NCBI RefSeq assembly: GCF_024700885.2
Contig: NZ_CP117016.1
Source: Escherichia coli
GTDB taxonomy: Bacteria > Pseudomonadota > Gammaproteobacteria > Enterobacterales > Enterobacteriaceae
DNA length: 64,000 nucleotides
Strand: one strand, 5' to 3'
Positions 28,139 through 28,176 of this stretch are shown in pieces. Below the pieces are notes generated by a model that saw only the letters and a list, made by a program, of their open reading frames with translations, ran no database searches and had not been told where the DNA came from. The first letter of the stretch is position 1. Each line of letters begins with the position of its first letter. Position numbers and translations under genes: made by a program.

Positions 28139-28176
28139 GAAAAAATAAAAATGACGGACAGGATGCCCTGTCCGTC
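28139..28176 (-). terminator. rho-independent terminator downstream of hcp
   Basis: On the minus strand GACGGACAGG-GCAT-CCTGTCCGTC hairpin followed by a T-rich run (ATTTTTATTTTTT), 10-45 bp after the hcp stop. Confidence 0.6.

Follow-up and report, generated by a model that had tools for sequence, protein, structure and literature searches.

The gap between hcp and clpV in a T6SS cluster of Escherichia coli carries a hairpin, H1, and a U-tract that, judged from sequence comparison, probably form a selectively maintained, partial Rho-independent terminator, with the polymerases that read through it loading RfaH at the ops1 element further downstream. Since the conserved H1 lies about 100 bases upstream of ops1, the hcp-clpV gap would constitute a two-part control module rather than a lone terminator.

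The cluster lies in the 64-kb stretch of DNA analysed here (the window) and is, by its sequence, the Sci-1 T6SS of enteroaggregative-type E. coli: a 401-nt stretch around H1 shows 100% identity to E. coli 042, inside the Sci-1 T6SS cluster of that strain. The gene order on the minus strand of the window is tssB, tssC, tssK, tssL, a tagL-like gene (OmpA-family), hcp, clpV/tssH, two small genes and vgrG. The hcp open reading frame (28185..28676, minus strand; stop codon TAA at 28187..28185) encodes the T6SS tube protein of 163 aa, 100% identical to WP_001007313.1, the RefSeq hcp product of E. coli 042. The first gene 3' of the module is clpV/tssH (25359..28016, minus strand; ATG at 28016), and the essential genes located 3' of the gap are clpV, vgrG, tssM, tssA, tssF, tssG, tssJ and tssE. 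The gap itself is 168 nt long and was folded whole. The RefSeq annotation of E. coli 042 includes hcp and tssH and leaves the intervening gap unannotated.

The Sci-1 cluster of the window and that of E. coli 042 are 99.66% identical and differ in the tli1 immunity gene, present in a single copy here and in two copies in 042 (about 825 bp fewer in the window, at about 19400-19450). The island regions flanking the cluster show 82-95% identity to 042. The essential baseplate gene tssK (32403..31065, minus strand) has a 1-base insertion (A) at about position 32066 relative to E. coli 042, which leaves ORFs of 113 aa and 339 aa; among 76 E. coli genomes that carry this tssK segment, a 100% match was obtained only in strain MLI114 (NZ_CP117013.1). 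From the sequence, the insertion is either an error of the assembly or a frameshift specific to the strain, in which case this T6SS would be inactivated. A partial copy in strain A33 belongs to a decayed T6SS remnant and was set aside as uninformative.

H1 (28153..28176, minus strand) begins 8 nt past the hcp stop codon, on the strand of hcp and clpV, and consists of 10 perfect pairs, seven of them G-C. Its 5' arm GACGGACAGG (28176..28167) and 3' arm CCUGUCCGUC (CCTGTCCGTC in DNA; 28162..28153) enclose the loop GCAU (GCAT in DNA; 28166..28163), and the U-tract AUUUUUAUUUUUUCUUC (DNA tail ATTTTTATTTTTTCTTC; 28136..28152) follows directly 3' of the hairpin, all on the minus strand. The tail after the stem reads A-UUUUU-A-UUUUUU, with 11 U in 13 nt of the sense strand. 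A preliminary description of this DNA had claimed a perfect 10-bp stem with a T-tract after hcp and before clpV, within a T6SS cluster; the sequence agrees, on the minus strand. The folding energy, which that description had named as a check, is -18.3 kcal/mol for H1 alone against -5.6 +/- 2.2 for shuffled sequences (z -5.8; as good in 0 of 200 shuffles) and -20.2 kcal/mol (z -4.4) with flanks, and H1 ranks first among the terminator-like sites over 18 kb.

Intrinsic terminators are defined by a G-C-rich stem of about 5-14 bp with a loop of 3-8 nt and by a U-rich stretch of about 7-9 nt on the transcribed strand, 0-2 nt from the stem base. H1 and its tail display both features, and relatives maintain pairing and U-tract in the same place. 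The base that directly follows the stem, A here and G in many homologues, was counted against the terminator reading. No T-run was found 3' of H1 or H2, the hairpin that follows it, on the plus strand; H1 is thus unidirectional, and a bidirectional terminator is ruled out by the missing plus-strand T-runs after both hairpins. The H1 sequence has one occurrence in the 64-kb window when up to 3 mismatches are allowed, and a median of one place per E. coli genome. Being single-copy in the window, it is not a repeat element, and its assignment to the REP or ERIC repeats, which are recognised by multiple dispersed palindromic copies, was rejected. No Rfam family matches H1 or H2, and no repeat matches H1; a permissive Rfam scan returned spurious miRNA-like matches to H2. 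A literature search found no Term-seq, RNA-seq or in vitro data for this locus, and the literature on transcripts (terminator, TSS and operon mapping) of this cluster type in EAEC, Enterobacter and Klebsiella contained nothing decisive.

The same arrangement recurs throughout Enterobacterales. A scan with the Hcp protein, limited to one genome per species, yielded 80 loci in which Hcp is 91-96% identical and clpV is nearly always the next gene; with two further E. coli variants the comparison set reached 83 in total. The genera represented include Enterobacter, Klebsiella, Citrobacter, Serratia, Pantoea, Erwinia, Edwardsiella, Rahnella and Buttiauxella. A hairpin lies upstream of ops in all 83 loci, and in 81 of them a single hairpin (median -16.8 kcal/mol) is accompanied by a T-run (at least 5 T in 8), the two exceptions (L017 and L056) having kept the hairpin while the T-run decayed. 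The combination of a hairpin of -14 kcal/mol or better and a T-run is present in 74 of the 83 real loci compared with 3-5 of 83 dinucleotide-shuffled ones. Between the end of H1 and ops lie 84-153 nt (median 102). The ExPEC variant of E. coli retains the same order and the same ops with a different H2, its H1 reading GGCAGACAG-GAAA-CTGTCTGCC, followed by TTTTTGTTG. Among 5426 complete E. coli genomes, 1290 have the ExPEC-type module and 91 the EAEC-type, about a quarter together. Two loci of the comparison set carry unexpected species labels: L048, labelled Chryseobacterium sp. 18061, has an hcp-ops segment identical to that of L044 (Citrobacter sp. 18056), and L083, labelled as the alphaproteobacterium Martelella alba, has an hcp-clpV locus of the Enterobacterales type. 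Both assemblies are probably contaminated or mislabelled.

In 63 loci the hairpin starts 0-16 nt past the stop codon; 18 loci have an insert of 50-199 nt that separates H1 from the hcp stop codon. The tolerance of such inserts weakens the idea of control through ribosome proximity at the nearby stop codon; regulation via a stop codon 4-10 nt from H1 was accordingly given little credit. The H1-H2-ops block is intact in the insert-bearing loci. Inserts were recorded in L013 (3492-3684), L021, L032, L033, L035, L039, L061, L065, L066, L069, L070, L077, L078, L080 and L081; most are about 130 nt long with the same starting sequence, they range up to about 190 nt over about 16-18 species, and that of L013 has 27-nt terminal inverted repeats. 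By their sequence these inserts look like ERIC elements; they lie next to H1 and are distinct from it.

Base pairing is conserved in this segment beyond the sequence itself. In an alignment of 80 distinct sequences from H1 to ops, the consensus structure given by RNAalifold comprises H1, H2 and a weaker third helix by ops. Over the whole structure, 96.4% of cells are paired, compared with 87.1% in column shuffles and at most 46.5% when partners are slid. Compensatory changes occur in 16 of its 23 pairs, and the double-change cells number 147 where 33 are expected, a level reached in none of 500 shuffles. The individual hairpins behave alike, with compensatory changes in 5 of 6 aligned pairs and 98.8% of cells paired for H1, and in 9 of 10 aligned pairs and 90-96% of cells paired for H2. 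The H1 stem sequences diverge while pairing is kept, as illustrated by the arm of the window and by GGCAGACAG, GCGGACAGG, GCAGACGG and GGGCTGGCA. Wobble pairs are frequent, for example U-G 35 times and G-U 27 times in H2, and G-U 18 times and 12 times in H1. A G-U pair corresponds to an A-C mismatch on the opposite strand, so the two hairpins form in the sense-strand RNA and are not operators in DNA.

Read as DNA, H1 and H2 are palindromes, and ERIC-type repeats insert into this gap in some species, so that the inverted repeats could also be regarded as a DNA-level feature (an operator or a cruciform) or as a neutral or repetitive element with no RNA role. Against this, the half-sites covary instead of being conserved in sequence, the wobbles would be mismatches in DNA, loop lengths vary freely, and the hairpin is single-copy in the window and matches no Rfam family or repeat. 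Covariation and strand asymmetry together make such an explanation very improbable. The terminator reading of H1 proposed in the preliminary description is strengthened by the conservation and covariation over about 80 species; what did not hold is its treatment of the hairpin in isolation, H1 being the first element of a conserved module.

The second element, H2 (28105..28146, minus strand), is a covarying hairpin of 19 bp (-24.6 kcal/mol, z -7.8) whose 5' arm AUUUUUUCUUCAGCAUCUG is the distal U-tract of H1, joined through the loop UUGG to an A-rich 3' arm, CGGGUGCUGAAGAAAGAAU. Two functions can be dismissed for it. H2 as an antiterminator of H1 is ruled out by anatomy, since H2 does not overlap the H1 stem, and by timing, its 3' arm being made once termination has already been decided; a role as second terminator is ruled out by the lack of a U-tract 3' of it. 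H2 possibly shields read-through RNA from Rho, Hfq or RNase E, possibly protects the 5' end of RNA that has been processed, or possibly is a site for RNase III.

The sharing of the U-tract between terminator and H2 raises the question of what maintains it. In the outer pairs of H2 the U is always on the 5' side (U-A, U-G, sometimes C-G or G-C, never A-U), a one-sidedness that is unexpected from the alignment for a purely structural helix, which would not be constrained in this way. In one lineage (L037, L047, L051, L059 and L054), the H2 arms are richer in G-C and start further downstream, and the T-run TTTTTGTTTTG is left unpaired directly after H1. The U side that is never swapped and the unpaired T-run of this lineage favour a U-run kept for termination over one kept as an H2 arm alone.

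These observations bear on the proposal that H1 is mainly a 3'-protective stem-loop, the transcript being cleaved near the hcp-clpV junction and 3'-5' exonucleases being blocked, with no attenuation. Precedents exist in other T6SS: mutagenesis of the stem of the analogous hcp4 hairpin of Yersinia pseudotuberculosis T6SS4 lowered only hcp4 mRNA and left downstream transcripts unchanged, which its authors attributed to a 3'-protective loop and not a terminator (PMC12503267), deletion of the hairpin region lowers hcp3 mRNA in EHEC (PMC13141884), and the high level of hcp1 mRNA in Pseudomonas putida K1 is ascribed to stability (PMC9993120). In EAEC, an AU-rich single-stranded linker, AUUUUU, separating H1 from H2 is also compatible with cleavage at this point. 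However, a stabiliser has no need of a U-tract, whereas 81 of 83 loci have a stem followed by at least 5 T in 8, and the T-run is kept even where it lies outside H2. Moreover, H2 begins 0-2 nt after H1 in most species, leaving little single-stranded RNA for an endonuclease. Protection as the main role of H1 therefore seems unlikely. Termination does not preclude protection, since a terminated transcript likewise has H1 at its end; H1 possibly acts in addition as a 3' stabiliser enriching tssB-hcp transcripts.

The last element of the module is ops1, the RfaH recruitment element. An ops site is recognised by a consensus of 12 nt, GGCGGTAGnnTG, read along the direction of transcription on the non-template strand; the exact 12-mer GGCGGTAGCGTG at 28048..28059 on the minus strand conforms to it and is the sole match in the 64-kb window. 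The sequence GGCGGTAG is found in the hcp-downstream gap of all 83 homologous loci. A JUMPstart-like sequence, CGGCGAAGGGCGGTAGCGTG (28067..28048, minus strand), encloses ops1. It scores 19.8 bits with the Rfam JUMPstart RNA model (RF01707), below the gathering threshold of 35, and so falls outside the family; the alignment with the model covers the linear flanks CGGCGAA and GGGCGGUAGCGUG only, the 18-nt internal hairpin being missing. No gathering-level Rfam match was obtained in 20 homologous loci.

The dependence of downstream expression on this element is published. Mutation of ops1 or of rfaH abolishes sheath assembly, and a reporter placed after clpV (ClpV-mCh-31) is "drastically decreased" in ops1 and rfaH mutants while a tssC-tssK reporter is unchanged (bioRxiv 10.1101/2025.02.08.637259). 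In the same work, Taillefer, Desjardins and Cascales report a frameshift in rfaH from EAEC evolved towards loss of T6SS activity and note the synteny of ops in the hcp-clpV gap among several enterobacteria; the words "terminator" and "hairpin" are absent from the paper (bioRxiv 10.1101/2025.02.08.637259). Since their reporters were normalised to the wild type, they do not reveal whether expression drops from upstream to downstream genes.

The weaker third helix of the consensus, P3 (28054..28086, minus strand), is tentative, with covariation in 2 of 7 pairs. It pairs ACC (28086..28084) with GGU (28056..28054, in the 5' half of ops) and CGCC (28078..28075) with GGCG (28066..28063). Its single-sequence fold is insignificant (z +0.66), and other species have a small variable hairpin within it. 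We take the pause position of RNA polymerase within ops to lie about 14 nt past the end of the 3' side of P3, and speculate that P3 could be a pause hairpin.

A further candidate ops sequence, GGTAGCTT (6257..6250, minus strand), lies in the gap after an ORF ending at 6513 and is likely, from its sequence and position, to be the counterpart of the published, less consensus-like ops2. No terminator-like hairpin was found on the minus strand just upstream of it. The order of terminator followed by ops is thus specific to the hcp junction.

The segment between H1 and ops was also considered as the site of a promoter, in which case H1 would be an efficient operon-end terminator and the genes from clpV onward an operon of their own, expressed from an unrecognised, possibly H-NS-silenced promoter between H1 and ops1. 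The position of ops1 would then be that of classical RfaH operons, in a true 5' leader. In uropathogenic CFT073, RfaH ChIP identified c3392-tssH as a T6SS target, and all eight RfaH targets, this one included, are described as having ops in 5' leaders and being H-NS-silenced at initiation (PMC9765446). In EHEC, hcp3 and vgrG3 belong to separate operons, and a promoter is predicted beyond the terminator (PMC13141884). A CACAAT-like hexamer does recur 40-55 nt upstream of ops, but its key T at position 6 is present in only 33 of 83 loci, and no -35 partner was found at a workable spacing. A positional scan of 81 loci revealed no sigma-70-like -35/-10 pair scoring at least 9 of 12 anywhere between H1 and ops (best 8, mean 6.2); TAGCGT of ops itself was the most frequent top match, and a by-eye check for a sigma-54 motif near TTGCT was negative. 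In addition, the covarying RNA hairpin H2 occupies this segment, and Psci1 is taken by the Cascales laboratory as driving one operon with all essential genes (bioRxiv 10.1101/2025.02.11.637775). The lack of a sigma-70 promoter, the occupation of the gap by covarying H2 and the one-operon model of Psci1 favour partial termination with read-through and make a separate clpV operon rather improbable. A weak promoter, or one for another sigma factor, between H1 and ops is possible on sequence grounds.

From the anatomy, conservation, covariation and strand specificity of the module, combined with the published dependence of downstream expression on ops1 and RfaH, we infer partial termination at H1 with stabilisation of the resulting 3' ends, along with any role of H2. 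Transcription from the Fur/Dam-controlled Psci1 would proceed through tssB-tssC-tssK-tssL-tagL-hcp, and a fraction of polymerases would stop at H1, with 3' ends expected at about 28146..28140. The terminated RNAs would end in a stable 3' hairpin, which would protect them from 3' exonucleases, and mRNA of the sheath and tube subunits, which are needed in high copy, would be enriched. Polymerases passing H1, without a coupled ribosome, would cross an untranslated, structured stretch of about 100 nt where the U-tract would be sequestered by H2. RfaH loaded at ops1 would then confer processivity and assist translation over clpV and the essential genes beyond it, which span more than 20 kb. As RfaH loads 3' of H1, it cannot suppress H1; terminator and antiterminator site are in series. 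We propose that a simple attenuation logic is replaced by a partial stop and the subsequent licensing of the surviving polymerases. In the hly operon, ops is upstream of an internal terminator, unlike the order here.

More tentatively, and with less confidence than is attached to partial termination at H1, the whole gap could be viewed as a conserved composite RNA/DNA cassette, new as a unit, in which H1, a U-tract-sequestering H2 and a small helix next to ops are combined with ops. Enterobacterales T6SS clusters of this class might then be split into a promoter-controlled sheath/tube part set by the terminator and a remainder gated by RfaH. Stop codon, terminator and structured spacer might let an internal ops work, the ribosome and NusG being stripped and the naked RNA shielded from Rho until RfaH loads. 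H2 might be a new cis element that, for example, protects read-through transcripts or acts as a processing site.

Intra-operon partial terminators that set subunit stoichiometry include the rplL-rpoB attenuator and the stem-loop after papA, the gene for the major pilin of E. coli. The hcp-clpV gap resembles both in that a G-C-rich hairpin and U-tract follow the gene of the most abundant structural subunit and lower-copy genes downstream are still transcribed; it differs from them in that an RfaH loading site lies about 100 nt later and the U-tract is reused as an arm of H2. With the RfaH/ops operons that have JUMPstart leaders (rfa, kps, hly and tra), the gap shares an exact 12-nt ops on the non-template strand in an untranslated region, and ops1 likewise precedes a long, horizontally acquired operon segment. 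Unlike those leaders, ops1 is internal, after six translated genes and a terminator, instead of promoter-proximal, and the JUMPstart hairpin is absent.

Hairpins after hcp have been described in other T6SS types. The h3R region of EHEC hcp3-vgrG3 contains a predicted terminator a few bases past the hcp3 stop codon, which blocks the next gene and stabilises hcp3 mRNA (PMC13141884). As in the present cluster, this is a terminator hairpin just after an hcp stop codon in an E. coli T6SS, although the likeness is one of description, and it belongs to another T6SS cluster with vgrG downstream and a separate promoter proposed; ops and RfaH have 0 occurrences in that paper (PMC13141884). The hcp4 hairpin of Y. 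pseudotuberculosis is also a G-C-rich stem-loop directly 3' of hcp inside a T6SS operon, and hcp mRNA there is far above the mRNAs of downstream genes, but the gene downstream is tssE and no ops element is reported (PMC12503267). Neither terminators nor RfaH appear in a review of T6SS regulation from 2023. What is already known is thus ops1 and the occurrence of a terminator or stabilising hairpin after hcp in other T6SS types; within the literature searched, the H1 of this cluster type, its conservation in Enterobacterales, its fixed coupling to ops and the covarying H2 appear to be new.

The Erwinia species of the comparison set (L028, L043, L065, L066 and L077) have the full H1-H2-ops module in the hcp-clpV gap. 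A study of Erwinia amylovora, in which ops was sought in the promoter regions upstream of operons, described T6SS-1 as being without ops and the effect of RfaH as indirect (PMC9562583); the comparison made here rests on the five Erwinia loci listed.

A T6SS needs hundreds of Hcp and sheath subunits and few copies of most other parts, and how one cluster delivers this ratio is poorly documented. A terminator after hcp in series with an RfaH site would provide a simple and testable account of the subunit ratio, and the module would explain the need for an antiterminator in the middle of the cluster. It may be relevant to the engineering or promoter-swapping of these clusters and to the interpretation of rfaH phenotypes, such as the "no ops" conclusion for Erwinia T6SS-1.
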